Shown here piece after piece: positions 6,953 to 23,573 of a stretch of DNA of 64,000 nucleotides. The stretch spans positions 27,464-91,463 of the forward strand of contig JAKPXB010000040.1 of the NCBI GenBank assembly GCA_029570375.1. The letters are read 5' to 3'. The stretch's first letter is position 1. Each line of letters opens with the position of its first letter. Origin of the DNA: Bacillota bacterium. Its GTDB lineage: Bacteria > Bacillota > Clostridia > Saccharofermentanales > DTU023. Position numbers and translations under genes: made by a program. The notes beneath the pieces are model-generated. The model saw only the letters and a program-made list of their open reading frames with translations. It was not told the DNA's origin and made no database searches.

Positions 6953-9754
6953 TCAGTCCCTGAGTTCGTCCAGTTTTGCCGTCTCGTCCGGCTGCTGCTT
7001 CGAGAGAACGGTTGTTTCCCCGAAATCAAGCTTCGATGGATCATACGCCTCGGCGGGCTGTCCGCCGCTCTGCCCCGGCGCACTGGCCTGCCCGGGTCGG
7101 TAAGGCGGGATGTAGGACTGGACAAAGGGCTGATTGGTTACGGGATGATCCGCCTGTATCGCGTTTTCCCAGGTTTCCGGTGAGAATCCTCTGCCATCCT
7201 CGCGGTATGCGTATGGCGGCTTCTCTGTCACCGCGCCGGCCGCAGGCACCGGCGCGCCCGGGGGATATGGGGGGGTAACAGGACCGGGACGGTATCCTCC
7301 TCCCGCCGGCGTCTGCGCATTCGGATACGGGGGAACAGCGGGGCCGGGGCGGTATCCTCCCGCCGGCGTCTGCGCATTCGGATACGGGGGAATGGCGGAT
7401 CCGGCAGGATAACCGGATGCCATCCGGTTATCGTTCGGCGCACCGGGATAGGCAGGTGCGCCCGCCTGAGCGCGCTTCCGGCGCTTCTTCGCCCGAACCG
7501 AAAGAATGAAAAAGACCGTGACAGCCGACAGGATTACCAGAAGCGCGGCCATCACATAGAGAACTAGTCTAATCTGCACGTTATTCATCATCTGCACCCA
7601 TCGACTTGTCGTCACATAGAAACCGGAGATTTCTCCTTCTGTCTGGTTACCCGCCGCATCGGCGCAGACAACGCGCAGATGGCGGGCGTTGTTTGAACCG
7701 CCCATGACGATGTAGTGGAAATCTTCTTTCCCTGAGACCAGTTTTTCGATCTCGAGCGCGTTCCACTCTTTTACCTTTTCTCCATCTAAATAAAGTATAA
7801 CATCGGAGAGCTTCACATTATCATCGGCGGTAAAAATAACATCGTAATCGCCTGCCGGGTAAGTTCCGCCTTTTTCAAGATTGAGGAACGATACGATTGG
7901 AGCTGTATTATCGACGATGAAGCTGATATCCATCCCCCCATGGCCGGATGAACTCTCCGATACGCGCCCAGCGCTGTCCTGGGAGCTGATGCTCAGGCGG
8001 TACAGACCGTCCTCTGTAAAATTGGCGCTGAAGATCCGGTACGCGTACTGGTAGAAACGGCCGTCCTCCCCGTCCTGCTCAAGACTGTAATCCACACCTT
8101 CTTTCAGTGTGGCGGAGTGATTATCTTTGAAGAGCGTCACTTGATTCGTCGCCAGCTTAAGGGCATTCGTCTCCGTCACAACGATATCCGGAGCCTTTTT
8201 CACGTATGATCCCGCCAGCGCTTTCGTTTCATCGCTGCATTCATACGTAGACCCGAACCGGTTGACGGAGAACCGGATCGTCTCTGATGTCGTATTGTTC
8301 AGCTTATCCTTCATCTTCACGCTGATCGTATAAAAATCGTCCATCTCCAGCGAGCGCGGAAACTCATGGTACTCCACACGCCCGCCTGTCGACTCCGTTT
8401 TCATCTCTTTAATGTTCAGTATGACTCCGCGGCGCTTCCCTGACAGCTGGATGTCCACACTCTCAGGCATCAGATTCGGGTCACTGAACTCGATGACAGG
8501 TGCGATCACCCCCTCACCTTTTTTATCGGATGTAATCCCGGTAACGGTGTAGGCCGGGGGAGTTGTGTCGATGATAAACGCCTGTTCGGCGAAGGACTCT
8601 GCCTGACGGCCGGCCATATCGCTGCAGCTGACCGCAAGAGAATACTCACCATCTTTATCATACAAAATCGTCGCGGTGTGCTTGTTCCCGTCACTCTGCC
8701 AACTGCTAACAACAGGCGGTTCAACTTCCTCCCCTCCCCGTCCGGCGCTCTGTGTGACAGTCACCAATTCGGGATCGAAATTCGCTTCGTCCACAGTGAT
8801 AGTCGCTTTCCGGAATTGATTGTAATAATTCGACATGACAGGCGCGGCGTCATCAAACCGGACATCCAGCACGGGGGCCGTACGGTCGATGAAAAACTCC
8901 TCATGAATGGGCGCCGCCGAAAGCCCGCCGGAATCTCTATAGGTTATGTCAACCGAGTAGGCTCCTTCTTCCGTGAACGGGATGGTCTTGGAAAAAGTGG
9001 ATACTGTCACTCCCTGGAAGGGGCTGCCGGCCGCGATTTCCTTGAAATCGTTCTGCCCGGGAAGCTTCTGCTTCACAGAAACTTTTACCAGAGTTTTGTC
9101 GAAATTAGCCTCTGTGACCTTGAGTGTCCCTGTCACCGCGTCGGTAAAGAACCCGCCCTTTTCCTTATTCTTATCGAATGTCAGCGACATGACAGGAGCA
9201 ACGCTGTCAATCACAAAGCTATCCAAGTATGATACAGGAGCTCCGGTTACACAGTCCGTACCCTCAATTTTCAGAATATAGCGCCCATCCTTCCTGAAGG
9301 CCAGCGTGCCTCTATATGTGTCCGCCTTACCACTGACCGGGCTGAACGCGATGTGTTTTCTCTCAATTGGCCCGTAGTCCTGGAAATAATAAGGGGTGTA
9401 TTCAACGCCGATATAAAAATCATCCGGATTAAAACCTGTATGTTTTATCTCGATCGTCGCCGTGCGCGGTTTTCTGTAGTATTCCCCGCCGAAAGCTTTA
9501 TTGTTGTCATAGGTAACCGTTACACTCGTTCCATGGCCGGTTTGAAGGCGAATGGGGAGATGGGACATGGGCGTTAACGGGCTCTGGCCTCCTATAAGAA
9601 GCCGCCTCGACTGCAGTCCCGCATGGTTTATATCCTCAACGACACCCGAATCAGCTTTTGCCGGCGCGCCCCCCGGCGCGTAAAAACACAGCATCAGACA
9701 GACGGCCCCTGCGAGCAAGGCCGCTCTCGATGCGCGATGTCTGCGGTTCTTCAT
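6953..9754 (-). CDS. Large type I membrane protein: signal peptide, several Ig-like modules, one TM helix, and a Pro/Tyr/Gly-rich cytoplasmic tail of about 180 aa
   Basis: Start re-set from 10222 to ATG 9754 (caaggagggc RBS at 9761-9770), because the upstream extension overlaps gene 9855-10412. The N-terminus MKNRRHRASRAALLAGAVCLMLCFYAPGGAPAKA is a signal peptide. Four modules end in FVIDSVAPV / FFIDRTAPV / FIIDTTPPA / FIVDNTAPI. The TM helix LVLYVMAALLVILSAVTVFFILSV is followed by KKRRKR. Confidence 0.8.
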   Translation of the reverse strand: MKNRRHRASRAALLAGAVCLMLCFYAPGGAPAKADSGVVEDINHAGLQSRRLLIGGQSPLTPMSHLPIRLQTGHGTSVTVTYDNNKAFGGEYYRKPRTATIEIKHTGFNPDDFYIGVEYTPYYFQDYGPIERKHIAFSPVSGKADTYRGTLAFRKDGRYILKIEGTDCVTGAPVSYLDSFVIDSVAPVMSLTFDKNKEKGGFFTDAVTGTLKVTEANFDKTLVKVSVKQKLPGQNDFKEIAAGSPFQGVTVSTFSKTIPFTEEGAYSVDITYRDSGGLSAAPIHEEFFIDRTAPVLDVRFDDAAPVMSNYYNQFRKATITVDEANFDPELVTVTQSAGRGGEEVEPPVVSSWQSDGNKHTATILYDKDGEYSLAVSCSDMAGRQAESFAEQAFIIDTTPPAYTVTGITSDKKGEGVIAPVIEFSDPNLMPESVDIQLSGKRRGVILNIKEMKTESTGGRVEYHEFPRSLEMDDFYTISVKMKDKLNNTTSETIRFSVNRFGSTYECSDETKALAGSYVKKAPDIVVTETNALKLATNQVTLFKDNHSATLKEGVDYSLEQDGEDGRFYQYAYRIFSANFTEDGLYRLSISSQDSAGRVSESSSGHGGMDISFIVDNTAPIVSFLNLEKGGTYPAGDYDVIFTADDNVKLSDVILYLDGEKVKEWNALEIEKLVSGKEDFHYIVMGGSNNARHLRVVCADAAGNQTEGEISGFYVTTSRWVQMMNNVQIRLVLYVMAALLVILSAVTVFFILSVRAKKRRKRAQAGAPAYPGAPNDNRMASGYPAGSAIPPYPNAQTPAGGYRPGPAVPPYPNAQTPAGGGYRPGPVTPPYPPGAPVPAAGAVTEKPPYAYREDGRGFSPETWENAIQADHPVTNQPFVQSYIPPYRPGQASAPGQSGGQPAEAYDPSKLDFGETTVLSKQQPDETAKLDELRD
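7291..7390 (-). repeat. Coding tandem repeat in the cytoplasmic tail (two copies of PPYPNAQTPAGG(G)YRPGP)
   Basis: ggtatcctcc(tcc)cgccggcgtctgcgcattcggatacggggg occurs at 7291-7333 and again at 7351-7390. The copies are identical apart from one 3-nt indel. Confidence 0.9.
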
Positions 9755-9854: not shown

Positions 9855-10412
9855 CTAATCGACGGGAATCGAACTGGCGTAAAAATAAAGTTCAAATTCC
9901 GGTTGTATCTCCAAATACCGGATCGCAGTATCTTCCCCTGCTGTCGGCACGGGCGATAACAACTCTGTGGCGGCGTTCGGCGCTTCTTCCGCGTGCGGCA
10001 TGTGAGGTTCCGCGGGAAACTCCGGGGCGGGTGCCGCCGGTGGAGGAGGCGGAGCCGGAGGTACTGGGGAAGAAGCGGCTGCCCGCGGTCCGGATATATC
10101 CGGAAGCTCTTCTGTTCTGATCTTCTCGGTCGCTGCCAGTCGGTCCGCGCCGGCACTGTCACGGCGGGACGAAGGATCCTTGCCTGGCTTTCTCCCGTGT
10201 TTTCTTTTTCCGCGGGATACACCGCCGCTCTCCACAGAGGCGGTGCCGCTCCTGCGGAGCGCCGCGACTTCTTTGCGTTCCTGTGATCCGGTCAGAAAAC
10301 CGATCACCTGGGGAATCCGGAACATGAAGAATGTGATGACGGTAAGCAGGAACATCAGGGCAGCGCCGCTATAAAGCACGAGCGAGATTGTTTTCATCTG
10401 TTCAAACGACAT
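9855..10412 (-). CDS. Small single-pass membrane protein with an Arg/Pro-rich linker; function unknown
   Basis: Start set to ATG 10412, 1 nt after the kinase stop, with gggggagagg upstream. The N-terminal TM is ISLVLYSGAALMFLLTVITFFMF, followed by a PPAPPPPPAAPAP tract and a short C-terminal segment ...IRYLEIQPEFELYFY.... Confidence 0.6.
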   Translation of the reverse strand: MSFEQMKTISLVLYSGAALMFLLTVITFFMFRIPQVIGFLTGSQERKEVAALRRSGTASVESGGVSRGKRKHGRKPGKDPSSRRDSAGADRLAATEKIRTEELPDISGPRAAASSPVPPAPPPPPAAPAPEFPAEPHMPHAEEAPNAATELLSPVPTAGEDTAIRYLEIQPEFELYFYASSIPVD

Positions 10413-10413
10413 C

Positions 10414-12120
10414 TCAGTCCTCTCCCCCGCTGACAAAAACGGCTTTTATCGCTTTCCGCGTTTCTATAATCCGGTCACGGATTTCCGATTTCATTTCCTC
10501 TGTCTTTCTCGTCGTTGTCGTCAGACCTCTGTTGATTTGACTGATCGTCTCACACATATTGAGCATGTCTATCTCCAATATGCCGTCCGCTTTAAACCTG
10601 CCGGCGTATTGCTGGAGGGCGCTTCTGCCGAGTTCCAGAAGTTCGAGCCGGACAATTTCGCTTTCTTCCTTATCCGCCGCGACCGTCCCGATCAGCTCTT
10701 TTAACTGATCGAAAAAAGGTTTGTACAGACCTTTGTCGGCGCCTTCTATCGTCTTGATGGCGATATCGCGGTAAAAAGTGCCGATTGCCGCGTATACGGT
10801 GGCCATCGTCGTCTTTTCCGTCTGTTCCGGGGCGTAGCGCACCGCGTCATCGAACCAGTCGATCGCGCCTTTCATGCGGGCGATCTGATTATCGCCCGCT
10901 TCGGTTCCGTAATCGTAGTAATACCAGAACAGTTTGCCGACTTCAAAGCAAAGGTCCGAGAAATCGCGTGGATTCCCCTTCAGATCCTTCAGATGCGTCT
11001 TGATCTGCCTGTTCAATATATTCGCCTCTTCGACGCTGAAGCGGGCGTCCCCCTCTTTGAACAACTGGATCATGCCGAGATACGCGTCCGGCACGCCGCC
11101 TTTATCCGGCATGTCGATACACAATTCGTAGAGCTCAAGCTTCTTCTGGTAGTCGGTTGACTGCTTCGCCTCGTCCAGTTTTTGCTCGTAATAATCGCTC
11201 GTCAGTTTTTGCGACTCCCGCCCGGTCCAGAAACCGCCGACGAGAAACGCGAGAGAAGTCAGCAGCGCGAGAGAAAATATCAGCAGGCGTCTTTTCTGTT
11301 TTCTGTGATAACGCTCATCGATTTCCTCGTAGTGTTCCAGCGCGTAGCGCAGATCGAAGCACTGCTGGTACCGATCCTCGGGATTTCGCTGCGTACACTT
11401 GAGCAGGATTTTCTCGAAACCGGAAGACAGACGCGGATTCACCGTACGGATCGGTTTCATTTCATAAGGGGGACTGCCGGGGTTAAGTCCGGTGACAAGA
11501 TGGTAGAGCGTCGCCCCCAGCCCGTAGACATCGGTGCGGGCGTCTGTCTGTCCCAGTCCGCCGAACTGTTCAGGCGCCGCGTAACCCACTGTCCCGAGAC
11601 ACGTTGTGTCTTCAACTTTTCTCTCTTTAAATTCACGCGCCGTACCGAAATCGATCAGCGCGAGGTTGCCATCCGGTTTCAGCATCACATTGGACGGCTT
11701 CATATCGCGATAAATGATCGGCGGCGTCTGCGCGTGCAGATAGGACAGAACATCACAGAGCTGCTTGCCCCATTCGATTACATATTCCTGTGGCTGCGCG
11801 CCGTATTCCGAGAGCACTTTTGAGAGAGGGATCCCTTCAATGTAATCCATCACAATGACCAGTGTGCTCTCATCTTCGATGATATCGATAATACTCGGCA
11901 GGTACGGATGACGCAGTTTTTTCAGCATCTCTGTTTCAACGATCAGCCCCTGACGGACAGCCTCGAAATCGAGCACGCCGTCTTTCCGGACTTCTTTGAC
12001 CGCCCAGGTTTTGTTCGCCTTCTCATTGATCGCCATGTAAACGATGCTCATGCCGCCGCGTCCGACCTCATGGAGAATGCGGTATTTGCCGTCGAGTAAT
12101 GCTCCTGTCTCGAGTGCCAC
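10414..12120 (-). CDS. Hanks-type Ser/Thr protein kinase with one TM helix and a helical, non-PASTA extracytoplasmic domain of about 270 aa
   Basis: 568 aa with a GTG start. Kinase motifs present are the glycine loop GRGGMSIVY, WAVKEV lysine, IIYRDMKPSN catalytic loop, DFG and APE. The TM helix LLIFSLALLTSLAFLVGGFW spans residues 279-298. Confidence 0.9.
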   Translation of the reverse strand: MALETGALLDGKYRILHEVGRGGMSIVYMAINEKANKTWAVKEVRKDGVLDFEAVRQGLIVETEMLKKLRHPYLPSIIDIIEDESTLVIVMDYIEGIPLSKVLSEYGAQPQEYVIEWGKQLCDVLSYLHAQTPPIIYRDMKPSNVMLKPDGNLALIDFGTAREFKERKVEDTTCLGTVGYAAPEQFGGLGQTDARTDVYGLGATLYHLVTGLNPGSPPYEMKPIRTVNPRLSSGFEKILLKCTQRNPEDRYQQCFDLRYALEHYEEIDERYHRKQKRRLLIFSLALLTSLAFLVGGFWTGRESQKLTSDYYEQKLDEAKQSTDYQKKLELYELCIDMPDKGGVPDAYLGMIQLFKEGDARFSVEEANILNRQIKTHLKDLKGNPRDFSDLCFEVGKLFWYYYDYGTEAGDNQIARMKGAIDWFDDAVRYAPEQTEKTTMATVYAAIGTFYRDIAIKTIEGADKGLYKPFFDQLKELIGTVAADKEESEIVRLELLELGRSALQQYAGRFKADGILEIDMLNMCETISQINRGLTTTTRKTEEMKSEIRDRIIETRKAIKAVFVSGGED

Positions 12121-12134: not shown

Positions 12135-12902
12135 CTAAAACGTTTTTATCGTAATGACTGAGATATTATCCCGTTCCTGCCTCTGTTTAACCAGATTGAT
12201 CAGCGCGCGCTCGGTTTCGCCGCTCACCTCCCAGGCGGTCAGCCGGTCAGGGTGAAGGGACTGGAATATTTCTTCTTCGCTGAGCTCATTGCGAAAGCCG
12301 TCTGTACACATCATGTAGACGGCATTTTCGCGCGTCTCTCCAAAAAAGAAATCGGGGTGCACTTCCTCCGACGCTCCGACACACTGGAGCAGAATATTGC
12401 GGCGCGGATCTCTTCTCGCCTCATCAGGTGTGAGTATGCCTTCCCGCACCTCCTGAGCGACGACCGTCTGGTCCTTCGTCAGCTGACACAGCTTCTCAGC
12501 GATTTCATAGGCGCGCGTATCGCCGACGTTGACGATCGAATACCTTTGCTGTGTTATCAGCATCGCCGTGAGCGTCGTACCTATCACATGTTTGCCGCGG
12601 GACGCAAACCGGGCGATCGCTCCGTTGCAGTATTCAATGAGGCTGTTCCAGTCGCTGCGGAGCCACTGATCAGGATGGTCCGAAGCGAGAACGCCCGCGA
12701 GTCTCTCGCCGGCCCAGCTGAAAAATGAGCGCACAACATACGCCGAAGCAATTTCACCGTAATCGAATCCCCCCATCCCGTCACAGAGAACAGCGAAAAC
12801 AACTCTCCCCTCGCCGGTTCGATAAACGCGGACATGGTAACTGTCCTGATTGGTCCGCTTCGTATTGCCGATATCCGTCGAGGCTGAAACGATAAATTCC
12901 AT
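12135..12902 (-). CDS. PP2C-family Ser/Thr protein phosphatase
   Basis: 255 aa. STDIGNTKRTNQDSY and LCDGMGG are typical PPM/PP2C metal-binding motifs. The gene ends 14 nt before the kinase start. Confidence 0.9.
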   Translation of the reverse strand: MEFIVSASTDIGNTKRTNQDSYHVRVYRTGEGRVVFAVLCDGMGGFDYGEIASAYVVRSFFSWAGERLAGVLASDHPDQWLRSDWNSLIEYCNGAIARFASRGKHVIGTTLTAMLITQQRYSIVNVGDTRAYEIAEKLCQLTKDQTVVAQEVREGILTPDEARRDPRRNILLQCVGASEEVHPDFFFGETRENAVYMMCTDGFRNELSEEEIFQSLHPDRLTAWEVSGETERALINLVKQRQERDNISVITIKTF

Positions 12903-12953: not shown

Positions 12954-14762
12954 TCAGCTCATGCGGAATTCAAATGATTCATTGGCGAGTCTTATCGAAT
13001 CGCCGTGTTTAAGTTCCGTCTCTTGATTGGCCGGAATCATCTGGCCGTTATGATAGGTATGATTTGTCGAATTTGTGTCGACCACGAAGAACCTGCCGTC
13101 GCGCGTAATAATATGGGCGTGGCTCCGGCTGATCGCCGTATTGTCCCCGATAAAATAATCGACAAAACTCTTCTCCTTGCCGATGCGGAAGAGCGGTTTG
13201 CTGAGGGGAATCCTCTCCTGATTGCTCTGGCGGATCAGATAGGGAAATGATTCCCGCGGTTCCTGCTTTACAGCTGCTCCAAGAACGGTTGTATCTTTCT
13301 GAGAGCTTCCCGTCAGCGATGTCGTCTCCCCGAAACTCACCGGCCCGGCGGCTGAAGGCGCCGGCGCGGGCATGGGCGGATACGCCGGTCTCTGTGCCGG
13401 AAAAGGAGGGGGAACGGGTGAAGGCGCCGGCTTCTGGGCAGGCGCGCTGACAGGCACGGGAGGCTGGAGCGGCTGTTTTGTTACCGGAGGCGCCGTCGGA
13501 TATTGTTGACGTGACCCCGGGATTTCCTCCTTCACCCCCGGAATCGAGAAAGGAACCGGCGGCGTGCCGGGCGCGGCTGGCGGTTCCGGCTTCCCGGGGA
13601 AACCGCCTCTCTGCGCGGCAGGAGCGGGCGCCGCACCTTGCTGGAATCCGGCTATCCCCGGAGGCGCCGCCTGCTGTTTTTTCTGCGCGTCGTAGATTGC
13701 CTTATTCTCCTTGCTGTAATGCATCATGAGATACATGAAAGACATTTTCTTCTCCCCGGATGCGGGCGCCGCGCTGCCTGTCCCTCCCGCGGGGGGCATA
13801 GGCTGCACGGGCTTCATCTGCGGAGATTTTTCTTTCCTTCGCCGGGGAGGACTTTCCGGGGCCGGAGCAATAGGCGGAATAGAAGGGGCTCCGGCGGCGC
13901 CTTGCGGCGAGGGCTGCATCCGCTGCCCGGGCGGCGGGGAGGGAGAAACGGCGTAGGAGGGGGCGGGAGCGCCGGCCGAAGGGGCTGGCGGCCTCGGTCC
14001 GTACGGCGGGATACTTGTCTGTGAGGCATCCACCGGCCGGGATTCAGCCGGCGGAGCACCGAAGTGAGGATCGCCGACCGGCGCGGCGCCGGCTGGCGGA
14101 GCGCCCGCATACGGCCCCCCGGTCAGCGGTGCACCGGCCGAAGGATACGGCGCCGCGGCAGACCCCTGGCCGATCGGATCACCCGCCAGATGGCGGAGAA
14201 AATCCCGGAAGTCCGGAAGGGAAAAGGCCTGCGGACGATTCATGAAGCTTATAATCTGGGCGACATAGCCGAGATTCTCAGATTGGTCAAATTGCGTCCG
14301 GAAGATAATGTCTTTCAGGAACAGGCTCACCTTTTCGTTGATATCGGCAGGTTTCCCGCCCGCTCCGCTCTCCGCCGCTGTGTCAATGACAGGAAGGCAG
14401 ACCATGTACGCGCGGCAGCTGGAGACATCGACGAAAATATAGTCCATCTCAAGGAGCAACGTGTCCGGATCGATCATGTACTCCTCCGCCCGCAGCAACG
14501 CGTTGGTAATGCCGGAAACCACCCCAAGGAGCTGTCTGCGGTTCACTGTTTCTGCGTAAAACTGGCGAAGGGATATCCGCGACGAAATATTGTATTTGAG
14601 GTATTGATTCTCATCTTTCTGTTGATAGATTGCGGGGAGCAGTCCTTCGATCTGATTGTGCGTAATCATCCCCAAACTGAGAGTGTCGATCCTGTCTGTA
14701 TCCGTTAACCGGTAAACAAGATACGAATGGGAACCCTGGCTGTCGTAGGTAAATGTGTACAT
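12954..14762 (-). CDS. FHA-domain protein: N-terminal globular domain of unknown function, long Pro/Ala/Gly-rich linker, C-terminal FHA domain
   Basis: 602 aa. The C-terminal ...FRIGKEKSFVDYFIGDNTAISRSHAHIITRDGRFFVVDTNSTNHTYHNG... carries FHA signatures (G-R, S-x-x-H, N-G). ETTS/DTTV motifs lie just upstream of the FHA domain. Confidence 0.85.
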   Translation of the reverse strand: MYTFTYDSQGSHSYLVYRLTDTDRIDTLSLGMITHNQIEGLLPAIYQQKDENQYLKYNISSRISLRQFYAETVNRRQLLGVVSGITNALLRAEEYMIDPDTLLLEMDYIFVDVSSCRAYMVCLPVIDTAAESGAGGKPADINEKVSLFLKDIIFRTQFDQSENLGYVAQIISFMNRPQAFSLPDFRDFLRHLAGDPIGQGSAAAPYPSAGAPLTGGPYAGAPPAGAAPVGDPHFGAPPAESRPVDASQTSIPPYGPRPPAPSAGAPAPSYAVSPSPPPGQRMQPSPQGAAGAPSIPPIAPAPESPPRRRKEKSPQMKPVQPMPPAGGTGSAAPASGEKKMSFMYLMMHYSKENKAIYDAQKKQQAAPPGIAGFQQGAAPAPAAQRGGFPGKPEPPAAPGTPPVPFSIPGVKEEIPGSRQQYPTAPPVTKQPLQPPVPVSAPAQKPAPSPVPPPFPAQRPAYPPMPAPAPSAAGPVSFGETTSLTGSSQKDTTVLGAAVKQEPRESFPYLIRQSNQERIPLSKPLFRIGKEKSFVDYFIGDNTAISRSHAHIITRDGRFFVVDTNSTNHTYHNGQMIPANQETELKHGDSIRLANESFEFRMS

Positions 14763-14795: not shown

Positions 14796-16103
14796 CTATC
14801 GGTTTAAACGGTAGAGCAGCAGGAGACGCCAAATCGCCTCTGTTTTCACGAAACAACTGCCTCTGCTGCTAAAATCTTTCGCGTCATCAAATGCGGCTTC
14901 TATGACAAGGTTGCCCGCGGAATCGATGAAGCCCCATTTGTCTCCGATTTTTACGGCAGCCAAACCGTTCGAGAAAGAGCGCGCGCTGTCGTATGCGGGA
15001 GGGATGACCATAGCGCCATCCGTATTAATAAAGCCCCATTGGCCGTCTTTTCTGACAGCCGCGAAGCCCTTGTCGGTAAAAAGTCTGGCGTCTTCAAATC
15101 TCTCCCCGCCCACGATCTCCCCTTCCAGATTGTAGAGAGCGAACAGATCGCCTTCTTTCGCGAAATAACGCTCATTCCGGTTGAAGAATTCTCTGTCGTC
15201 CAGAATAACATCCGCATACGCCTGCGCCGCAATCGGCGCTCCCGATGAATCTATTCTGATCCATTGGCCGCCTGATTTCGCGATGGCTGTCCCGCTGTTG
15301 ACCGCGGAGACATATTCGTATGGTTCCGACAGGATCTGATTATTGCGGTCAACGAGATAATAGTTCCCGTCTTTTCCCTCGGCCGGGAAGACATCGCCGA
15401 CCATAGGGCCGAGTCGTGAGAACCGTTCATCAATTTCTGTCACCTGTTCGTTATCCTTGTCGATAAAATAAGCGCCGCCATCGACGGAAACAACCGGCGC
15501 GAATCCGGAAGACGTAAACGGCCCCGCGTCTTTGTATTCAAATTTTATCAATTTTCTGCCGGTTTGGCTGATATAACCCCAGACACCTTTGTCATTCCGC
15601 ACGGGGCAGATATTCTGAGAAAAAAAGCCCACATCCTCGTAGCTGTCGTAGTCGAGCTTTGTCAGATACGCAAAACGGCTCCTCGTTTCCCGGATAAACG
15701 CAGAATCGACGGATCGTTTTTCCGCCACCTCCAGAATGTCAAAGACGCGGTCGTATTTTTTATCGACGACATAGGCGTCAAGCAGGCTGTCATAGGCTTC
15801 GGGCGCGACGGGGAAATCGGTGATAAACTGCTCACACCACAGCAGGCGCGCTTCGTCTTTCCCGACTGATTTGTAGAAATCCGCGACTTCCAGGCGTATC
15901 TCCACCGAATCTTTAATCTCAAGTGCCTTCCGATAGTTTTCGACTGCGTATTTGGCTACTTTCTTCCCCGCGAAATCACGCGCGGCCGCCAGCAGCTCTT
16001 CATATTGCGTATTTTTCGAAACGGCGGTGCTGATGAGCATCACCCAGGACAAAACGAGAAGCACGGCGAGCGCGATAGGAACGATGAGTCGATAATTTTT
16101 CAT
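14796..16103 (-). CDS. Membrane-anchored WG-repeat (KWG-type beta-repeat) protein with a TPR-like N-terminal region
   Basis: 435 aa. The N-terminal TM is LIVPIALAVLLVLSWVMLI. Repeats include GVWGYISQTGRKLI, GQWGFINTDGAMVI and DKWGFIDSAGNLVI. Confidence 0.8.
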   Translation of the reverse strand: MKNYRLIVPIALAVLLVLSWVMLISTAVSKNTQYEELLAAARDFAGKKVAKYAVENYRKALEIKDSVEIRLEVADFYKSVGKDEARLLWCEQFITDFPVAPEAYDSLLDAYVVDKKYDRVFDILEVAEKRSVDSAFIRETRSRFAYLTKLDYDSYEDVGFFSQNICPVRNDKGVWGYISQTGRKLIKFEYKDAGPFTSSGFAPVVSVDGGAYFIDKDNEQVTEIDERFSRLGPMVGDVFPAEGKDGNYYLVDRNNQILSEPYEYVSAVNSGTAIAKSGGQWIRIDSSGAPIAAQAYADVILDDREFFNRNERYFAKEGDLFALYNLEGEIVGGERFEDARLFTDKGFAAVRKDGQWGFINTDGAMVIPPAYDSARSFSNGLAAVKIGDKWGFIDSAGNLVIEAAFDDAKDFSSRGSCFVKTEAIWRLLLLYRLNR

Positions 16104-16115
16104 AAAGCACCTCCC

Positions 16116-16790
16116 TTACATGCCGGACAAACCGATGGCGATACACGCGCCGATCAAAACACAGGGCGCCAGTGAGATCGAATCCTTGCGCGTCTTTCGC
16201 CTGGTCAGGAGCAGATAGACCGCGTAGAAAAAGGAGACGATCAGAGAAAAGAATACGGCGTTGGCTGCCCCCCAAAGCCCCTGATACAGCCCCATGACAA
16301 AAAACAATTTGACATCGCCCATACCGACGCTGTTTTTCATGACGAATGAAATGATTAAAAAGAACCCGCCGACCAAAACGGCGCCGAGTGCCGCCGATTT
16401 CAGGATCACAAGCGCTCCCGCGGCATCAGTCATCAGCTCCAGACCGGCATAGACGACCCGCATCGCGATGGCGGCAAGAATCAGTGTATTGGGGATGATG
16501 TGGCGGACATGATCGATGGCAGCCATCGGAACAATGAACATCACAAGCGTCAGCAATTTGACGTGGTGCAGCAGCCCCGAAGCGGGATAGAGAGCCGTCA
16601 GCGAAGCGGCGAGAGCAATCCCCAGGAAAAGTGATATCGCGAGATACAGCTTGCGGTTTCGTCCCCGCGGAATCAAATGCGGCATTCTCAAGGCGGAGAA
16701 AGACTGACCGCTCAGTTTGCTGACGGTGAACGCGTACCCGAAAAAGGTCAGGACGAGAGTCAGAATGATTTCAATGATTAAGTGCTTCAC
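16116..16790 (-). CDS. tadV: A24-family prepilin peptidase (TadV/CpaA-like)
   Basis: Polytopic membrane protein with an Asp motif in NSVGMGDVKLF. The start is probably GTG 16790, directly after a ggagaaaggc RBS. The alternative ATGs at 16847/16841 lack an RBS and overlap the upstream gene. Confidence 0.8.
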   Translation of the reverse strand: MKHLIIEIILTLVLTFFGYAFTVSKLSGQSFSALRMPHLIPRGRNRKLYLAISLFLGIALAASLTALYPASGLLHHVKLLTLVMFIVPMAAIDHVRHIIPNTLILAAIAMRVVYAGLELMTDAAGALVILKSAALGAVLVGGFFLIISFVMKNSVGMGDVKLFFVMGLYQGLWGAANAVFFSLIVSFFYAVYLLLTRRKTRKDSISLAPCVLIGACIAIGLSGM

Positions 16791-16816
16791 GCCTTTCTCC
16801 TCAGCTATGGCCCCTG

Positions 16817-17716
16817 TCAGCGTCTGTCGCCCTGCATCCATCCGCATGTGACCGCTGTCTGGTTGAAGTCAAAATGGATATTTAACGGCAGCAGCGGAAT
16901 CATCTTCACCCGGTAGCGGACATTGACGACGATATAATCCGATCCGCCCGGGAACAAAAGGGAGCTTCTGAAATCCAATCCGTTTAAATAACTGTCGGCG
17001 CGCGGCAGAACGCGCATCGATCGCAGAAAGCTCTCCGGTTTCCCGCCTTTCGCATCGGTCAGATGCTTCTTGATCATCGCTGTGACGACCGGAGCGGCGA
17101 CGCGGCTTGACGTGTCCAGATCGAGATCGCCCCCGGCCGCGAGCTTTGCGAACCCAAAGAGCATTTTCACCGGATTCGAGGCGATGTTGTCCGCGGCTTC
17201 GCCGATTACTCCGCCGGATGTCTCGACCTTTCCTCCCTGGATGATACCGTCCCACGCTTTTCCGATATCGCTGTCGTTTATCTCAAAACTGTTTCCGCCG
17301 GCAATGCCCTGAATCGCTTGAAATACTTTGGGCACTTCCGACGAGATATTCTTGTTATTGGCTTCCTTTTTGTCTTTATATTCCCCGGAGCGTATCAGTG
17401 AATACAGGTAGCTGTATTCGGATATCTCCCGCGCTGTCGAATTGATGGCGAAAGCCATGCGCGCCTGAATTAAACAGACGTTGATCACCGATAACAGCGA
17501 GATAATCATAAAGATGAAGAAGCTGAGCGATATGATGGCTTCGATCGTGATACTTCCGCTTTCACGACAGCGCACTCTCACACCCGCGCGGTCCGCTGCT
17601 TTCGCCATACGGGACATCGGAGAAGACAATGAGCGATTCCTCACAGGTGCGCGCGGGAGAAACGTTTCCGGCCCGGCGGACGCGCTTCTCTTCTCCCCAT
17701 TCTTTGCAGACGGCAT
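16817..17716 (-). CDS. TadE-like pseudopilin / pilus assembly protein
   Basis: Start re-set to ATG 17716 after a ggaaggaggaag RBS, 28 nt downstream of the preceding stop. It has a prepilin-like motif ...RESG/SITIEAIISLSFFIFMI (Glu at +5) followed by a hydrophobic helix. Confidence 0.7.
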   Translation of the reverse strand: MPSAKNGEKRSASAGPETFLPRAPVRNRSLSSPMSRMAKAADRAGVRVRCRESGSITIEAIISLSFFIFMIISLLSVINVCLIQARMAFAINSTAREISEYSYLYSLIRSGEYKDKKEANNKNISSEVPKVFQAIQGIAGGNSFEINDSDIGKAWDGIIQGGKVETSGGVIGEAADNIASNPVKMLFGFAKLAAGGDLDLDTSSRVAAPVVTAMIKKHLTDAKGGKPESFLRSMRVLPRADSYLNGLDFRSSLLFPGGSDYIVVNVRYRVKMIPLLPLNIHFDFNQTAVTCGWMQGDRR

Positions 17717-17744
17717 GCGTCTTCCTCCTTCCTGGCGTGAGGCG

Positions 17745-20700
17745 TCAGTATCCCCGGGTCGCCTTGTAATCGATCGTGTACCACGATGTATCGTCCAGCG
17801 GGTCTCTGAATGTATCGGCGAACAGCGGCAGGGGCATGAGCACGGGTTTAACGAGCACCTGCGCTTCCACTGAATAATAGGCGCCCGCCCTGCGGATAAG
17901 ATAATTGTCATCCCCGGTGACCAGATGGACATTGAGCTGAATCACATCGGCGGTTCGGAGCAGAATGCCCGTACGATTCGTGAACATCCCGAGAAGGAGG
18001 AACAGCCTCATATAATCGCTGTAGCGGAAAGACAGAAGAGATGATATGCCCGTGCTTTCGCCGGACGACTTCCTGCCTTCACCGCCGCTGCCGCCGGACT
18101 GCCCGTCCGATCCGAAGAACCCGTCGATGCTGCTGTCAAGTTCTTCCTTCAATTTCTCGGCGCTTTCGTTCATCGCATCTTTCGCCTTCTTCATCGTCTC
18201 TTCTTTGTACCTTTTAATCTCCTCGGACCCCTCCTGGAGTTTTTTCTTCACGGCTTCTGAGATCTCGCTAAGGAACGTGTTCATTTCCTCCGCGAGCGCT
18301 TCGATAGAGCCCACCTCACGTTTCTCAATCCCGCGGATTTTTTCGATCGAGCTCCTGATATACTTTTCTTTAAGCATTTCGACCGTTTTCTTCTTCGCGA
18401 TATAGGAGATATCCGACTTATCTTCGTCCAGCGTTCCGAGCCACTCGTCCAATTTCTCAGAGACATATTGTTCCGCGTTAAATCCCGGCTCTCCTTTCGA
18501 TTCTTCCGTAAGCGCGTTCTGGATAAGAGACAGCATTTTCTTGACGGCTACATTCGCGTGGCGCGCAATGAGATCGTCAAAGCTCTGACTGACATGCGCC
18601 TCTATCTCTTCCCTGTTATCTTTTATGAAGGCTTCCGCCTCCTCGCCGCCTTTGTCGAGGTATTCGCCCAGCTTATCTGCGGCTTTGTTGATGGCTTTAT
18701 CGGCGGCATCTTTCAGAAGATTGGATGCCTCGCTCTTTGCCGCGTTCATCAGCCCTCCGGGCGTGACCACCCAGGAGTCTTTCTTGTGGAAAAGGGGAAC
18801 GGCCTTCCCTCGCGCCAGATTCCCCAGATCAATCGCCGATTGTATCAGCGCGAGGAGTATCTGAATCGAGGCCTGAACAAGCGGTACGGGGAGGACACCC
18901 CACGAGGCTGCCGAAATGGGCGTCGCGATCGAAAGCGCGAACGTATTGGTTTCCATATCGGAAAAGGCAAAGATGACGTTCAGACCGAATCGAATGGCGA
19001 AAATGGAGCTGTAGGCATGCGTCACGTTCGCCGATCCCGTCCCCCCGTAGAGGATGTACTCGATCTCGCGGTCGTAGTGGTAGTTGTTCACTTCATTAAT
19101 CAGATGATTCCGGAGAGTCTGCGGTTTACCATCCAATTTTTTTTCTGTATGCTCGTTCTGTATGGTATCGAAACTGAACATGCTGAGGAGGTAATCGGTG
19201 ACATAATAGGCGTCGCGCAGATCTTCCGACGATCCGCTCAGAATCTCGGCAACTCCCGAAAACATGCCGGCGAGTCCGGTACTGGTGCTCTTGGCCACGT
19301 TGTCAGAGTCGTTGCTGTATTCGCCCGAAGCTGTCGCGGAGGACGGAACGCCTTTCGTCTTGGAGGGAAGACTTGTTTCAGAGAGGCTTTCTCCTGTTTT
19401 TTCAGGGTCTTCCCTTTCGGTTACCGCCTTTTCTTTCTCCTTCTTCGTTTCGTTTTCGCCGGTTTTCTTCATGCTTTCCTTGAGCTTTTCGCCTTCTTCA
19501 TCTTTATCGGTGCGGAAAGTACAATGGCGTTTCGTTTCATTTAATTCCTTGGGATCCGAATGCTTCCTGTAAAGATATTGATAGAAAACAGGTTGATACG
19601 ACCCGAACAGTGAAAGGCCGGTCTTGGGGTCGCTCATCCAGGAAAAATCGATCACCGGCGCTTCGAATAATCCGTCGAATGAGCTCTCCGCCCCTTCTCT
19701 TAGCGGTTTTTTCAGCTTTGATCTGTTATTAAAATATTCATCCCCGAGTTCGCGGCGAATGAGGCTTAAGAACTTATTACCGCCTTCATCGTAGCCGGTA
19801 ATATCGCCGACGAATTCTCCGGCATACCTGAACTGATTGATTTGTTCTAATACTTGTGCCATCCGCTTTCTGAGTGATTCGACGCGGTTGTACAGTTCAG
19901 CGACCTGGTCCTTGTCGTACGTGTCTTTGATATCTTTGATATCCGCTTTATCCTGTTCCGCCAGAGATGAAAGCGAAAGGGCCGGGTCTTCCGACGAATG
20001 CCGCCACTCTTCCCTCTTCTGTATGAGCGCGCCGCCGTTGAGGGAATCATATACGTCCTTGAGAGCGTCCGCCGCTTTCTGCAGATAATCTACGGCATCC
20101 TCGAATTTCTCCTGATACATCTTTGCTTTCCACGTGACCTCTTTGATCTCTTTGTTGAGACTGGATCTCTCCGTCCGCCCTGAGATCCGAATATTTGTCG
20201 TCAATTCGGCAAGAGGCTGGAACGCATCACGCGTCATCCGCATATCCTGTTCGTAATAATCCTTGATGCTTGCCGCGAACTCCGCCGCGGGCACAGTTCT
20301 TCCGCCTCCCTCAACCTCTACGGAAAAGTCAAGCGACTCATCATCCGCCCACAGCATCGCGACGGCAAAATCCTGGTATTTCCGATAGCGGTCGAGTGGG
20401 CCGTTTTTTATGTACTGTCGAAGACTCTCGGGTGATAATTGCCCTTTATACAACTGCGCCACATACTGGATATCGTAAAACTCTGTACCGATCGTGGAAG
20501 ACTTCGGCAGCCCGAGCGACGCGAGTGATGTTTTTATGTCAGCGATTTTCTTGTCGCTGTAAACACCGCGCATATCATTCATCAGGAGCTGCATCTGAAT
20601 GATACCGGGCCTTCTGCCCGCGTCGTAGCCGCCGGGGTAGAGAGAGACAAAACTGTTGTACTTCTCTCCCCAGCATTCTAATTCCCAGGTCTCGCTTTCC

Positions 20701-21521: not shown

Positions 21522-21549
21522 TGACTCCCTCACCCCTTTCCATTGCGCG

Positions 21550-22218
21550 TCAGTCAAAAATCTTCAAGATACTTTTGACTTTGCCAAAGGCCTCCGAAAC
21601 ATACTTTGAGGCGCCGCTGCCTTCCAGGTAATCGATTACCATATCCGTGTTCCGGATAAATTCTGCTGAATAACTGACGGGCATTTCGGCGCGGGAATAG
21701 AAATCCAGCGATATCTTGTTCTTATCGCCGAGAAAACGAATAGGAAATGTTATCTCGTACTCAACCGCTACGTCAAAAGTAGCGTAGACAAAATAGTTGT
21801 TGAAGTGCGCTATATCTGACGCCGGCGTGACGAGGACAGGCCTCATCCCCGGGAAAAAACCCGCCGACTTCTTGCTGAATCTCTTCGCGACTTTCTCGTT
21901 GATAAGGGAGACGGCGCTGGCGCGGCTGTTCCCTTTGAGAAAACGGTACGGCTCGATGCTGATCTTTTCGTCGAGGCTGAGTTCCCCGTTATGCCTGTAC
22001 GCTCTTTCCATGATGGAATCCGCGCACACTCTTGCCCCTATGATCGCGTACTGTTCCACTTCAGATTCAGTCTCGGCTCTCTGGTAGAGAAGGTTCCCCG
22101 TGAAAATCAGGAAGAAAATCACGAAAAAGATAACAGGAAAGACAATCGCCGCCTCAACGAACACGACGCCGCTTTCATCGCTTCCCGCTTTGCGCCATGC
22201 GCGAATAACCCTATCCAT
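21550..22218 (-). CDS. TadE-like pseudopilin
   Basis: Start set to ATG 22218. The motif ...SDESG/VVFVEAAIVFPVIFFVIFFLIF has Gly at -1, Glu at +5 and a hydrophobic helix. Confidence 0.75.
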   Translation of the reverse strand: MDRVIRAWRKAGSDESGVVFVEAAIVFPVIFFVIFFLIFTGNLLYQRAETESEVEQYAIIGARVCADSIMERAYRHNGELSLDEKISIEPYRFLKGNSRASAVSLINEKVAKRFSKKSAGFFPGMRPVLVTPASDIAHFNNYFVYATFDVAVEYEITFPIRFLGDKNKISLDFYSRAEMPVSYSAEFIRNTDMVIDYLEGSGASKYVSEAFGKVKSILKIFD

Positions 22219-22343
22219 ACGAAGGCCTCGCTTTCCGATCCAGCTACTGGTTATTTGTTCGCTCAATGAACAGACCGGCAAATCAAAAGAACTGCCACCG
22301 GTTCATCCGCTCCGCGCGTTTTCAAGACGAAAGAGCCGTCCCT

Positions 22344-22559: not shown

Positions 22560-22600
22560 GGTTAACCCTCCTAAGTATGACCTGTTAGAATGAATATTCC

Positions 22601-22619: not shown

Positions 22620-22683
22620 ACTCAGTTAATCTATCTTCCGCGCCTATGGCAATCGCGATCTGATAACCTGCCTGTGCGGCTCT

Positions 22684-23559: not shown

Positions 23560-23573
23560 CTCTCCCCCTCCTC

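Follow-up and report, generated by a model that had tools for sequence, protein, structure and literature searches.

Paired threonine motifs ahead of an FHA domain in a clostridial Tad-type pilus operon, with copies on membrane proteins: a candidate kinase-controlled switch

The window, the whole 64-kb stretch of DNA that we analysed, carries on its minus strand a long operon that gene content and order identify as a Tad (tight adherence) type IVc pilus operon conserved in Clostridia. Tad systems were recognized by TadZ, a CpaF/TadA ATPase, a TadB/TadC platform, a prepilin peptidase and TadE-like pseudopilins. The upstream genes (14796..26876 (-)), assigned with Pfam and found in the same order in related loci, encode in minus-strand order TadZ, the CpaF ATPase, TadB, TadC, a Flp-pilin candidate (a Flp-like 71-aa ORF at 22344..22559), TadE, a giant DUF5702 protein, a TadE-like ORF, a prepilin peptidase and a WG-repeat protein. 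Matches included TadZ-like_ARD (2e-44), T2SSE (8e-61), T2SSF, Peptidase_A24, TadE and the Tad N-terminal motif, and synteny of the Tad genes holds over 80 related loci, all 80 from Clostridia or unclassified MAGs. Downstream lie genes for a 602-aa FHA protein, a phosphatase, a kinase, a small membrane protein and a large Ig-like surface protein.

The FHA gene (12954..14762 (-)) bears two threonine motifs, and its domain content makes the product a member of the uncharacterized DUF6382-FHA (TseJ-like) family. Pfam places DUF6382 (PF19909) at aa 6-127 (3e-23, 82.6 bits), within an N-terminal domain spanning aa 1 to about 195 (14178..14762 (-)). The AF2 model of this domain (pLDDT 88.8, pTM 0.85) had as its top Foldseek PDB matches (TMq 0.5-0.6) the kinases or pseudokinases Pan3, ILK and TRIB2 and, from the pIP501 T4SS, the TraF N-domain. 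Its fold is predicted to be kinase-like (a pseudokinase), and no Gly-loop, HRD or DFG motif was seen on reading the domain sequence. A Pro/Ala/Gln-rich, low-complexity linker follows (aa about 196-476; 13335..14177 (-)). Such a long linker is present in all members, with length and sequence differing between homologues, which measure 474-629 aa (a spread of about 150 aa) and conserve both terminal domains. Column conservation is low at aa 443-475. One island within the linker, EKKMSFMYLMMHYSKENKAIYDAQKKQ (aa 337-363; 13674..13754 (-)), is conserved in alignment A1, with L345, H348 and N353 invariant and K338, S341, Y349, K351, E352, Y357 and Q360 at least 90% conserved. The family is large (694 homologues in 90% clusters; 2355 50%-cluster representatives at E<=1e-30) and ranges over Lachnospiraceae, Ruminococcaceae/Oscillospiraceae and allied groups that live in the guts of humans and animals.

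Translation of window positions 13278-13334 on the minus strand gives FGETTSLTGSSQKDTTVLG, confirming the paired ETTS and DTTV threonine motifs that the preliminary description had placed upstream of the FHA domain. Motif 1, FGETTSL, occupies aa 477-483 (13314..13334 (-)), with ETTSL at aa 479-483 (nt 13314-13328), and motif 2, KDTTVL, occupies aa 489-494 (13281..13298 (-)), with DTTVL at aa 490-494 (nt 13281-13295). The predicted phospho-acceptors are T480, with L483 as the +3 residue, and T491, with L494 at +3. The first threonines stand 45 and 34 residues from F525 of the FHA core FRIGKEKS, in line with the approximately 30-45 residues originally reported, and 27 and 16 residues ahead of FHA strand 1, distances that follow from the AF2 model setting strand 1 at P507. 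In an AF2 model of the C-terminal 140 aa, the motif region had pLDDT <50 and is predicted to be disordered, adjoining a confident FHA fold. The same model left the unphosphorylated motifs undocked on the FHA domain, which says little, since phosphate is absent from the model and an undocked state is expected.

Alignment of orthologues, the check suggested when the motifs were first described, showed that 241 of 243 relatives have two T-x-x-L motifs at the expected positions, with the distance to the FHA domain held constant. Motif 1 lies 24-29 and motif 2 11-18 residues ahead of FHA strand 1, with 10-13 residues from motif to motif; the spacers vary in sequence and keep their length, and the linker upstream of the motifs varies freely. 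The family consensus is FGETTVL for motif 1 and xGETTVL for motif 2. Counted from the first Thr (position 0), motif 1 shows Phe at -3 (97%), Gly (99%), Glu (83%), a second Thr (87%), Val at +2 (88%) and Leu at +3 (98%), and motif 2 has Ile, Ala, Val or Met at -3, Gly (93%), Glu (85%), a second Thr (91%), Val at +2 (96%) and Leu at +3 (99%). Near-invariance is confined to the first Thr and the +3 Leu, both of them being kept in motif 1 in 120/120 of the closest set of relatives. These conservation patterns point to a T-x-V-L core in which the first Thr is the likely phospho-site. The near-universal retention of F/G/E/T/V/L positions at 83-99% within an otherwise unconserved linker suggests that the motif pair is under selection. 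What did not hold is the literal 'ETTS' as the conserved form: the T-x-x-L pair is conserved, and 'ETTS' is a variant found only in the small clade of the window (P0001-P0005). Nor are the motifs a general trait of DUF6382-FHA proteins, a 354-aa paralogue in locus L055 having none.

The FHA domain itself (aa 507-602; 12957..13244 (-)) begins with AF2 strands from P507 (pLDDT 80-92), matches Pfam FHA (PF00498) at aa 526-592 (8e-14, 52.2 bits against a cut-off of 20.7) and is the sole FHA domain in the 64-kb window. Canonical pThr-binding FHA domains conserve G-R, S-x-x-H and N (Rad53 R70, S85, H88 and N107). In the alignment to Rad53 FHA1, S545, H548 and N567 fall under S85, H88 and N107, and K529 falls under R70 of the 'GR'. 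This Lys at the position of the canonical phosphate-binding Arg is invariant (189/189 relatives), as are the remaining pocket residues S545, R546, H548, T566 and N567 among relatives. Foldseek matched the FHA domain to EmbR, OdhI, DgcB, Rad53 and GarA. By sequence its best PDB match was DgcB (E about 1e-7), and OdhI and GarA matched at E about 1e-4, the generic FHA level.

A kinase and a PP2C phosphatase had been described as the next two genes, and both are indeed there on the same strand, the PP2C first and the kinase second, each the only one of its kind (Hanks kinase, PP2C) in the 64-kb window. The PP2C-type Ser/Thr phosphatase (12135..12902 (-); Pfam PP2C_2, 2e-10) contains DGMGG and CTDGF, and the membrane Hanks-type Ser/Thr kinase (10414..12120 (-); Pfam Pkinase, 4e-44) contains AVKEV, YRDMKPSN, DFG and APE. 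Both keep their catalytic motifs; they are presumed to be the eraser and the writer, respectively. In the kinase, the catalytic domain is joined by a single TM helix (aa 279-298) to an extracytoplasmic C-terminal domain of ~270 aa. Orthologues are conserved neighbours in related loci, with the PP2C after the FHA gene in 69/80 and the kinase in 67/80; in some loci (L050, L055, L060, L061 and L064) the motifs are kept with no kinase or PP2C gene alongside. Within the kinase activation loop, the segment EDTTCLG (11593..11613 (-)) resembles the substrate motif. Orthologous kinases conserve xDT[TIVM]CLG or GETTGIG between DFG and APE, most often ADTTCLG (31/59), with EDTTCLG in 7/59.

Copies of the motif recur on membrane proteins of the operon. 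The gene after the kinase encodes a small single-pass membrane protein of 185 aa (9855..10412 (-)) with a TM helix at aa 8-31, then a basic stretch, and a cytoplasmic tail. Most of its relatives carry 1-7 ETTVL-type motifs on that tail, and the 43 small-protein tails together hold 72 strict motifs where 0.18 would be expected, typically spaced 10-12 aa apart; stray matches elsewhere in the 80 loci were few. The small protein of the window has degenerate copies only, AATELL (9957-9974) and TEKIRTEEL (10104-10130), of which AATELL falls in a motif column of the alignment of 43 small-protein homologues. The large Ig-like surface protein (933 aa; 6953..9754 (-); Pfam Big_3_3 and Big_13) has a signal peptide, Big_3 domains and, as read from the sequence, a TM helix at aa 728-751 and a Pro-rich cytoplasmic tail of ~180 aa. 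That tail ends in a bipartite motif (6971..7024 (-)), FGETTVL then DETAKL, with the Thr residues 11 apart. In the closest complete relative (L002) the Ig-like tail has FGETTLL then DETTIL, likewise 11 apart. The window and L002 thus share a long Ig-like tail ending in a bipartite motif and a small protein with no strict motif; in other complete Ig-like homologues the tail is 3-11 aa long and has no motif. The motif appears to have been relocated in a complementary fashion, from the small-protein tail to the Ig-like tail, in the clade of the window. A motif on the Ig-like tail as a general trait was accordingly rejected, its occurrence being restricted to that clade.

The preliminary description had likened the FHA protein to mycobacterial GarA. 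Kinship with GarA/OdhI did not survive comparison with the OdhI model NF041660 (24.0 bits against a cut-off of 200), only the generic FHA fold being common to both, and membership of the GarA/OdhI family was rejected on that score together with the 602-aa length, the DUF6382 N-domain, the clostridial host and the Tad operon. The layouts are alike in part. GarA and OdhI have a disordered tail N-terminal to an FHA domain detectably similar to that of the 602-aa protein, and the tail bears a conserved Thr-Thr motif, acidic before and hydrophobic after. Hanks kinases phosphorylate the tail, whose pThr then docks on the FHA domain of the same protein and switches it off (PMC5448819; PMC6733907), phosphorylation of ETTS being what switches GarA off (PMC5448819); the titles of Nott 2009 and Barthe 2009, as cited in PMC12321487, speak of an intramolecular switch and of autoinhibition. 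The self-binding tails of GarA, OdhI and DgcB have hydrophobic residues at -3, +2 and +3 from the Thr (PMC6733907), and the family motifs follow this pattern with Val at +2 and Leu at +3 of the first Thr and, at -3, Phe in motif 1 and Ile, Ala, Val or Met in motif 2. In functional register, the first Thr of the family corresponds to the second Thr of GarA, a shift of one residue, and the acidic residue stands at -1, not -2. GarA and OdhI are otherwise proteins of ~140-160 aa, confined to Actinobacteria, with one motif, and regulate TCA and glutamate enzymes (ODH/GDH/GOGAT), whereas the 602-aa protein belongs to Clostridia and a pilus operon, combines an N-domain of predicted kinase-like fold with a 300-aa linker, carries two motifs, both more shortly tethered, and Lys for the pocket Arg, and is accompanied by motif copies on partner membrane proteins.

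DgcB of Bdellovibrio (tail-FHA-GGDEF) has a tether of comparable length. Its own N-terminal tail (pT14, with Val at +3) binds the FHA cleft (PMC6733907), and pT14 lies 18 residues before the FHA start, compared with 16 and 27 in the 602-aa protein. For reaching the protein's own pocket, the motif 1 tether looks comfortable and that of motif 2 borderline. Both intra- and intermolecular binding were considered for DgcB (PMC6733907). It differs in its diguanylate cyclase output, its single motif, the retained canonical Arg, its proteobacterial host and the lack of trans copies on partners.

In domain architecture the protein matches TseJ and TsfJ of T7SSe and T7SSf, which have the same two domains, DUF6382 and FHA, and the same companions in the membrane kinase TseD, the PPM phosphatase TseF and TseK, which crosses the membrane once and has a short cytoplasmic stretch (PMC11217815). 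The available part of that source treats TseJ/TsfJ at the domain level and mentions neither motifs nor copies on membrane partners. Their genes lie in a T7SS locus that also encodes WXG100 proteins and the FtsK-type ATPase EssC/TsxC, whereas the cassette in the window sits in a Tad operon. A phmmer search with the L055 EssC as query found no EssC-like ORF in the 64-kb window, and an EssC-type ATPase lies downstream in 3/80 related loci. A T7SSe/f locus was therefore rejected for the window, given the missing EssC and the Tad flanks, although the cassette is common to both. An FHA-pseudokinase pairing in a Gram-positive envelope machine is that of EssB/YukC with EssC in T7SSb, in which an inactive kinase-like fold partners FHA domains (PMC11217815); there the two are separate proteins that bind without phosphate, whereas the 602-aa protein has its predicted kinase-like fold and its FHA domain on one chain, keeps most pThr-pocket residues and has a real kinase next door.

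Two more distant systems share parts of this logic. In T6SS, PpkA/PppA/Fha and the Agrobacterium Fha-TssL pair provide a membrane kinase, a PP2C and an FHA scaffold that control assembly of an envelope machine (PMC3953482; cited in PMC11217815), with the FHA domain binding pThr on a membrane component (PMC3953482). The machine and phylum differ, no tandem cis motifs adjoining the FHA domain are described, and identity with T6SS Fha/TagH was rejected (TIGR03354 VI_FHA, 32.6 bits against a cut-off of 120.25, over the FHA core only). EsrG1 of oral Actinobacteria resembles the 602-aa protein by description: an N-terminal pseudo-enzyme, a disordered middle with phosphorylated T152 and, at the C terminus, an FHA domain, with a conformational change on phosphorylation proposed and a link to Esx secretion (PMC13622651). 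It departs from it in a pseudophosphatase N-domain, a MoxR/vWA/beta-propeller sensor pathway and a transcriptional output.

Because the same motif occurs on membrane proteins of the pilus operon, the likeliest reading is that the motifs form a kinase-controlled switch between self-binding and membrane-partner binding. More specifically, we tentatively favour, at a little under an even chance, competition for one FHA pocket between a cis ligand on a tether and membrane-anchored trans ligands. The FHA protein (reader), PP2C (eraser), membrane Hanks kinase (writer) and small membrane protein would then make up a Ser/Thr signalling cassette of four genes inside the clostridial Tad-type pilus operon. 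Both motifs would be phospho-acceptor and FHA-ligand sites with a T-x-V-L core, the first Thr being phosphorylated and the +3 Leu fitting the FHA specificity pocket. Two copies would act in cis, on short tethers of fixed length before the protein's own FHA domain, and others in trans from cytoplasmic tails, usually that of the small protein after the kinase and, in the clade of the window, that of the Ig-like protein. When the cis sites are phosphorylated, the tail would fold back and fill the pocket, giving a closed state as in GarA, OdhI and DgcB; if instead the trans sites carry phosphate and the cis sites do not, the FHA domain would dock on a membrane tail, which may place the kinase-like N-domain, along with the long linker, at the pilus machinery.

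The autoinhibitory phospho-switch first suggested for this protein therefore stands only in part. The fixed distance, the predicted disorder, the conserved kinase and PP2C neighbours, the lone FHA domain and lone Hanks kinase of the window and the DgcB-like tethers favour it, and the trans copies, the Lys in place of the pocket Arg and, with little weight, the AF2 non-docking count against it. With the motif also on membrane proteins of the operon, a purely intramolecular off-switch would be at best half the mechanism. Several observations weigh on the competition model as well: the invariant Lys replaces a phosphate-contacting Arg, so that pThr affinity is only putative; some loci have the motifs but no kinase or PP2C beside them; and the L055 paralogue has the two domains without the motifs. 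With just 11-18 residues between it and strand 1, motif 2 is close to the lower limit for reaching the apical pocket, and so may act only in trans.

Among other explanations, chance Thr-rich pentapeptides in a low-complexity linker can be put aside as a negligible prospect. The linker composition is biased, but at least one [ED]TT[SV]L arose at a frequency of only 0.00085 in 20,000 composition-preserving shuffles of the 602-aa protein and two copies in 0/20,000, and a six-frame scan of the 64 kb gave three matches, all inside the Tad/FHA operon, the third at 7004-7018(-). Together with near-invariance in relatives, the shuffles rule out a chance origin of the pair. A more serious contender, which we consider rather unlikely though well worth weighing, is intermolecular multivalent assembly in place of self-inhibition, in which phosphorylated cis motifs would be bound head-to-tail by the FHA domain of another molecule and membrane-tail arrays would bind several FHA proteins; phosphorylation would nucleate a membrane-proximal cluster or condensate, aided by the ~300-aa Pro/Gln-rich linker, and so organize Tad pilus assembly. 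Two cis copies per FHA domain and 1-7 trans copies per small-protein tail, regularly spaced by 10-12 residues (about 10-11 aa in the trans arrays), fit this at least as well as a 1:1 cis switch. The long low-complexity linker in every member agrees with it, as does the motif 2 tether, which disfavours folding back. There are also precedents, the authors on DgcB listing intra- and inter-domain modes, including TIFA-like fibres (PMC6733907), and T6SS Fha condensates being reported, in the accessible portions of the sources, to start assembly (PMC13389060; bioRxiv 10.1101/2023.12.21.572528). Purely intermolecular binding would, however, have no obvious need of a fixed tether to the protein's own FHA domain.

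The motifs might alternatively be kinase substrate or docking sites, the main FHA ligand being the kinase, by way of the phosphorylated EDTTCLG in its activation loop. Both the cis and the trans motifs would then copy the loop as phospho-acceptors or sinks, and the read-out would be not FHA binding but, for example, altered linker behaviour or recruitment of another factor. GarA docks through its FHA domain onto phosphorylated kinases before it is itself phosphorylated, PDB 6i2p (a PknB kinase-domain complex with GarA) is among the FHA matches, and the near-identical [ED]TT[C]LG is conserved in the loops of orthologous kinases. This last resemblance is partly expected, because T-x-x-G-T is generic in kinase activation loops. 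As conservation of the +3 Leu and -3 Phe and the fixed tether would be left unexplained, we regard the kinase as main ligand as improbable, though it is compatible with, and not exclusive of, cis/trans competition. We similarly give little credence to a phosphorylation-independent short linear motif, for instance a beta-strand added onto the DUF6382 domain, TadZ/CpaF or the FHA surface, as in the phospho-independent enzyme binding of GarA, with the kinase and PP2C regulating something else. A T/V/L-rich sequence is strand-prone, the pocket Arg is replaced by Lys, some loci keep the motif with no kinase adjacent, and no phosphate is needed for EssC FHA domains to bind the EssB pseudokinase (PMC11217815). 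Against this, a near-invariant Thr with a hydrophobic residue at +3 is a classic FHA ligand signature, the remaining pocket residues are intact, and about 85% of loci have kinase and PP2C together.

A broader and distinctly speculative extension, which we think rather unlikely in its full form, is that T-x-V-L constitutes an operon-wide phospho-threonine 'address code'. One membrane kinase would write it, on its own activation loop, on the two tethered sites of the FHA adaptor and on the membrane-tail arrays, and a single FHA domain would read it. Competition between tethered cis and multivalent trans copies, possibly with clustering through the Pro/Gln linker, would gate assembly of a Tad-type pilus/adhesin complex in gut Clostridia upon an extracellular signal, and some type VII secretion systems would employ this portable cassette as well.

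Our literature searches returned no paper on how Gram-positive gut anaerobes regulate Tad-type pili post-translationally and nothing relevant on DUF5702, the Tad locus or Lachnospiraceae; GETTVL and ETTVL appeared as accidental strings only, and DUF6382 in one domain-level mention of the family. For annotation, the structural models give DUF6382 a predicted kinase-like fold, and the small TseK-like membrane protein gains a probable role as a phospho-acceptor platform. The locus is also a compact test case for cis versus trans competition for one FHA pocket, in which writer, eraser and reader are defined and three or more ligand classes are encoded side by side. Given the size of this family in gut commensals, a phospho-switch controlling piliation would bear on adhesion and colonization by abundant commensals.

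The minus-strand translation of window positions 13278-13334 is FGETTSLTGSSQKDTTVLG, which lies inside a 602-aa ORF (12954..14762(-)) in which Pfam recognises DUF6382 (aa 6-127) and an FHA domain (aa 526-592). The two threonine motifs that the preliminary description had placed before the FHA domain are present, as ETTSL (motif 1, aa 479-483) and DTTVL (motif 2, aa 490-494). In an AF2 model of the last 140 residues, the first FHA strand begins at P507, pLDDT is below 50 over the preceding 44 residues, both motifs included, and the tethers to this strand are 27 and 16 residues. Composition-preserving shuffles of the protein contained at least one [ED]TT[SV]L at a frequency of 0.00085 and two copies in 0 of 20,000 cases, and a six-frame scan found the strict motif three times in 64 kb, every copy within this operon; these shuffle frequencies and operon-restricted matches rule out a chance origin.

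A homologue search using 90%-identity clusters returned 694 homologues (474-629 aa), all with the DUF6382 and FHA architecture. Exactly two motifs occur in 107 of the best 120. Across the 120, each motif keeps its first Thr and its Leu without exception, and the linker before them is unconserved. Searching with a profile at E<=1e-30 and keeping one representative per 50%-identity cluster, we obtained 2355 proteins. In 243 pooled proteins with an FHA anchor, numbered from the first Thr (position 0), motifs 1 and 2, respectively, have F (97%) and mostly I/A/V/M at -3, G (99% and 93%) at -2, E (83% and 85%) at -1, T (87% and 91%) at +1, V (88% and 96%) at +2 and L (98% and 99%) at +3. The acidic residue and the second Thr vary in divergent representatives (ETVVL, ETSVL, NTTVL, QTTVL), and even there the first Thr and the +3 Leu, which constitute the conserved feature, are kept; the literal ‘ETTS’ is a variant of the small clade to which the window protein belongs (P0001-P0005). 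Conservation at a fixed distance from the FHA domain held up, with the T-x-x-L pair at the expected positions in 241/243 of these pooled proteins and narrow spacing across relatives (10-13 residues from Thr to Thr; 11-18 and 24-29 residues from motifs 2 and 1 to FHA strand 1). Constrained geometry with free sequence is the behaviour of a tether whose length matters, and we are almost certain that the motifs are a selected functional element. Amid the otherwise unconserved Pro-rich linker is a conserved island, EKKMSFMYLMMHYSKENKAIYDAQKKQ (aa 337-363, window 13674-13754(-)), with invariant L345, H348 and N353, which may be a docking helix.

By descent, the protein is a TseJ-like DUF6382-FHA protein. 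The only family literature found is a comparative genomics study (PMC11217815), the available part of which names such proteins TseJ/TsfJ, as components of the T7SSe and T7SSf secretion variants with the kinase TseD, the PPM phosphatase TseF and the single-pass membrane protein TseK as companions, and does not mention the motifs. The GarA label of the preliminary description was not borne out: the curated OdhI model scored 24 bits, far under its cut-off of 200, and membership of the GarA/OdhI family was rejected. The T6SS Fha model scored 33 bits (cut-off 120). DUF6382 (aa 1-195, window 14178-14762(-)) folds confidently (pLDDT 88.8), and its best structural matches are the kinases/pseudokinases Pan3, ILK and TRIB2, with the TraF N-domain of the pIP501 type IV secretion system also among the top matches (TMq 0.5-0.6 throughout). 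The model suggests a small kinase-like domain, probably inactive, with catalytic motifs apparently absent; the whole protein thus appears to be a pseudokinase fused to an FHA domain, recalling the EssB-EssC pairing of T7SSb. The FHA model matches the structures of EmbR, OdhI, DgcB, Rad53 FHA1 and GarA, and by sequence the solved structure closest to it is the FHA domain of Bdellovibrio DgcB. S545, H548 and N567 align with S85, H88 and N107 of Rad53 FHA1, and K529 (window 13176-13178(-)) replaces the phosphate-contacting R70 of Rad53, the canonical ‘GR’ Arg. This Lys is invariant (189/189 relatives), and we know of no characterised pThr-binding FHA domain with Lys at that position.

The next two genes on the strand encode, as had been described, a PP2C phosphatase (12135..12902(-)) and a Hanks-type kinase (10414..12120(-)), both assigned by Pfam and with catalytic motifs kept. 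Upstream on the same strand are TadZ, a CpaF-type ATPase, TadB, TadC, a Flp-like 71-aa ORF, TadE, a 1270-aa DUF5702 protein, a TadE-like ORF, a prepilin peptidase and a WG-repeat protein. The 71-aa ORF (22344-22559(-), between TadE and TadC), with a hydrophobic core after ...DEKG/EVNVVAIVVLIGVAIALAVIF, is a candidate for the Flp-type pilin of the locus. Mechanical ORFs at 6953-10222(-) and 16817-17932(-) are too long at the 5' end; the former, an Ig-like protein, most likely starts at MKNRRH (9754), opening a signal peptide, rather than at the GTG at 10222, and the latter (371 aa) probably starts internally, ahead of a TadE-like hydrophobic segment. Just past TadZ (27331-30372) are a divergent Flg_new (Listeria-Bacteroides repeat) membrane protein and a 636-aa LuxR-family (GerE) regulator, which might control the pilus locus transcriptionally or be its cargo.

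Scanning one genome per species, we obtained 80 of 213 confirmed loci, nearly all bearing the label of a Clostridia group (Lachnospiraceae, Ruminococcaceae/Oscillospiraceae, Acutalibacteraceae, Roseburia, Acetatifactor and one Mageeibacillus MAG). Their common gene order is TadZ-CpaF-TadB-TadC-TadE-DUF5702-ORF-peptidase-WG, followed by FHA-PP2C-kinase-small membrane protein-large Ig-like protein, with PP2C in 69 and the kinase in 67 of the 80. The EssC ATPase was not found in the 64-kb window and occurs in only 3/80 loci, where the T7SS genes come after the Tad genes; the FHA-PP2C-kinase-small-protein unit therefore looks like a portable four-gene cassette. In these loci (L055, L060 and L061), several more genes lie downstream of the Tad and DUF6382-FHA genes. 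The one inspected (L055 9998-18701) has a second DUF6382-FHA paralogue without motifs, a ParA/TadZ-like ATPase, an EssC-type FtsK ATPase with an N-terminal FHA domain and a small YwqH-like protein; this set is a T7SSf-like system directly adjoining the Tad genes.

Copies of the motif recur on the membrane proteins of the operon. The ORF directly after the kinase in related loci (~150-210 aa) has one N-terminal TM helix and then a basic stretch, an arrangement that predicts a cytoplasmic tail. Motifs of the form xTT[VILS]L occur in 41/62 loci having such an ORF, and at least one strict [ED]TT[VSIL]L in 33/42 homologues (phmmer); a relaxed copy retaining T and +3 L (for example, ETMVL, ETALL, ETSVL or ETTKL) is present in 43/43, the window protein included. 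Strict motifs total 72 in the 43 proteins; shuffling predicts 0.18, and none of 500 shuffles gave more than 3. Successive copies are most often 10-12 residues apart, and a six-frame search of the 80 loci found few stray strict matches elsewhere. The window protein (9855..10412(-)) has degenerate copies only; its AATELL aligns with a motif column, and its TEKIRTEEL is a conserved site. The alignment (window, L002-L077) also shows conservation of a juxtamembrane segment, IPxVIGxLTG..ARKAIExIR, of a TEK[IF]xTxxL site ahead of the motif array, and of a C-terminal tail, roughly F.[IV][ED].[ED][IM].F..S.E[IV]I[E], of which the window version is EFELYFYASSIPVD (9858-9899(-)).

The Ig-like surface protein of the window (6953..9754, 933 aa) has a ~180-aa Pro-rich cytoplasmic tail ending in DFGETTVLSKQQPDETAKL (6971-7024(-)), whose two Thr, 11 apart, match the pair before the FHA domain in spacing and ‘FG’ flank. 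In L002 (14194-17661), the closest complete relative, the Ig-like protein has a tail with FGETTLL ... DETTIL and the small protein has no strict motifs. All other complete Ig-like homologues, ~1800-2300 aa long, have tails of 3-11 residues and lack the motif. Judging from these sequences, the motif has switched membrane anchors in the window and L002, from small protein to Ig-like tail, and this relocation argues that a membrane-tethered copy is functionally required. The much shorter Ig-like protein of the two loci gained a long tail that ends in the bipartite motif.

The pThr peptides that FHA domains bind are selected at +3. Phosphorylation of the ETTS tail by Hanks kinases turns GarA and OdhI off, the tail then filling their own FHA domain (PMC5448819); Nott 2009 and Barthe 2009, listed by title among the references of PMC12321487, reportedly concern this intramolecular switch and autoinhibition. 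DgcB binds its own tail when this is phosphorylated (pT14, with Val at +3) on an 18-residue tether, which the 27 and 16 residues of the window protein bracket; intra- and intermolecular modes were both considered, and self-binding tails share hydrophobic residues at -3, +2 and +3 (PMC6733907). Taking the first Thr as 0, both motifs have these features (F or I/A/V/M at -3, V at +2, L at +3); taking the second, +3 would be Gly, Asn or Ser, so T480 and T491 are the predicted phospho-sites. The motifs are probably pThr/FHA ligands; their action in cis as an inhibitor is a more tentative proposal, rated slightly below even.

The best model, in which both phosphorylation and binding are inferred and which we hold at a little under even confidence, is a competitive switch. 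A single FHA pocket would choose between tethered cis ligands and membrane-anchored trans ligands, the kinase acting as writer and the PP2C as eraser; a cis ligand would give the closed state, and a trans ligand would recruit the kinase-like domain and linker to the pilus machinery. Of the autoinhibitory phospho-switch first proposed, the idea of a conserved phospho-switch stands, but a cis-only mechanism is probably incomplete, as the motif is also on membrane partners. The main rival, intermolecular, multivalent assembly instead of a cis switch, is rather unlikely in our estimate; it is favoured by two cis motifs per FHA domain, regularly spaced arrays of trans motifs, a motif 2 tether that is short and a low-complexity linker that is long, and condensate formation by T6SS Fha proteins is reported in two papers (PMC13389060; bioRxiv 10.1101/2023.12.21.572528). 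As a lesser rival, the FHA domain might read mainly the kinase activation loop, whose EDTTCLG (kinase aa 170-176, window 11593-11613(-)) is very like the substrate motif GETTVLG and is kept as xDTTCLG or GETTGIG in orthologous kinases (ADTTCLG in 31/59). This resemblance is partly generic to kinases; substrates may mimic the autophosphorylation site, or the FHA domain may also dock on the active kinase. Also a lesser rival is a phosphorylation-independent motif, which the Arg-to-Lys change in the pocket would favour.

The competitive switch has a layout functionally like that of the self-tail-binding FHA proteins GarA, OdhI and DgcB, and like kinase/PP2C/FHA control of envelope machines, as in T6SS Fha-TssL and EsrG1 of Actinobacteria (PMC13622651). 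New here are the duplication of the cis motif on fixed tethers, its recurrence on membrane partners, among which it has changed carriers, a pseudokinase-FHA fusion with a predicted kinase-like fold, an invariant Lys in the FHA pocket and the Tad-pilus context in gut Clostridia.
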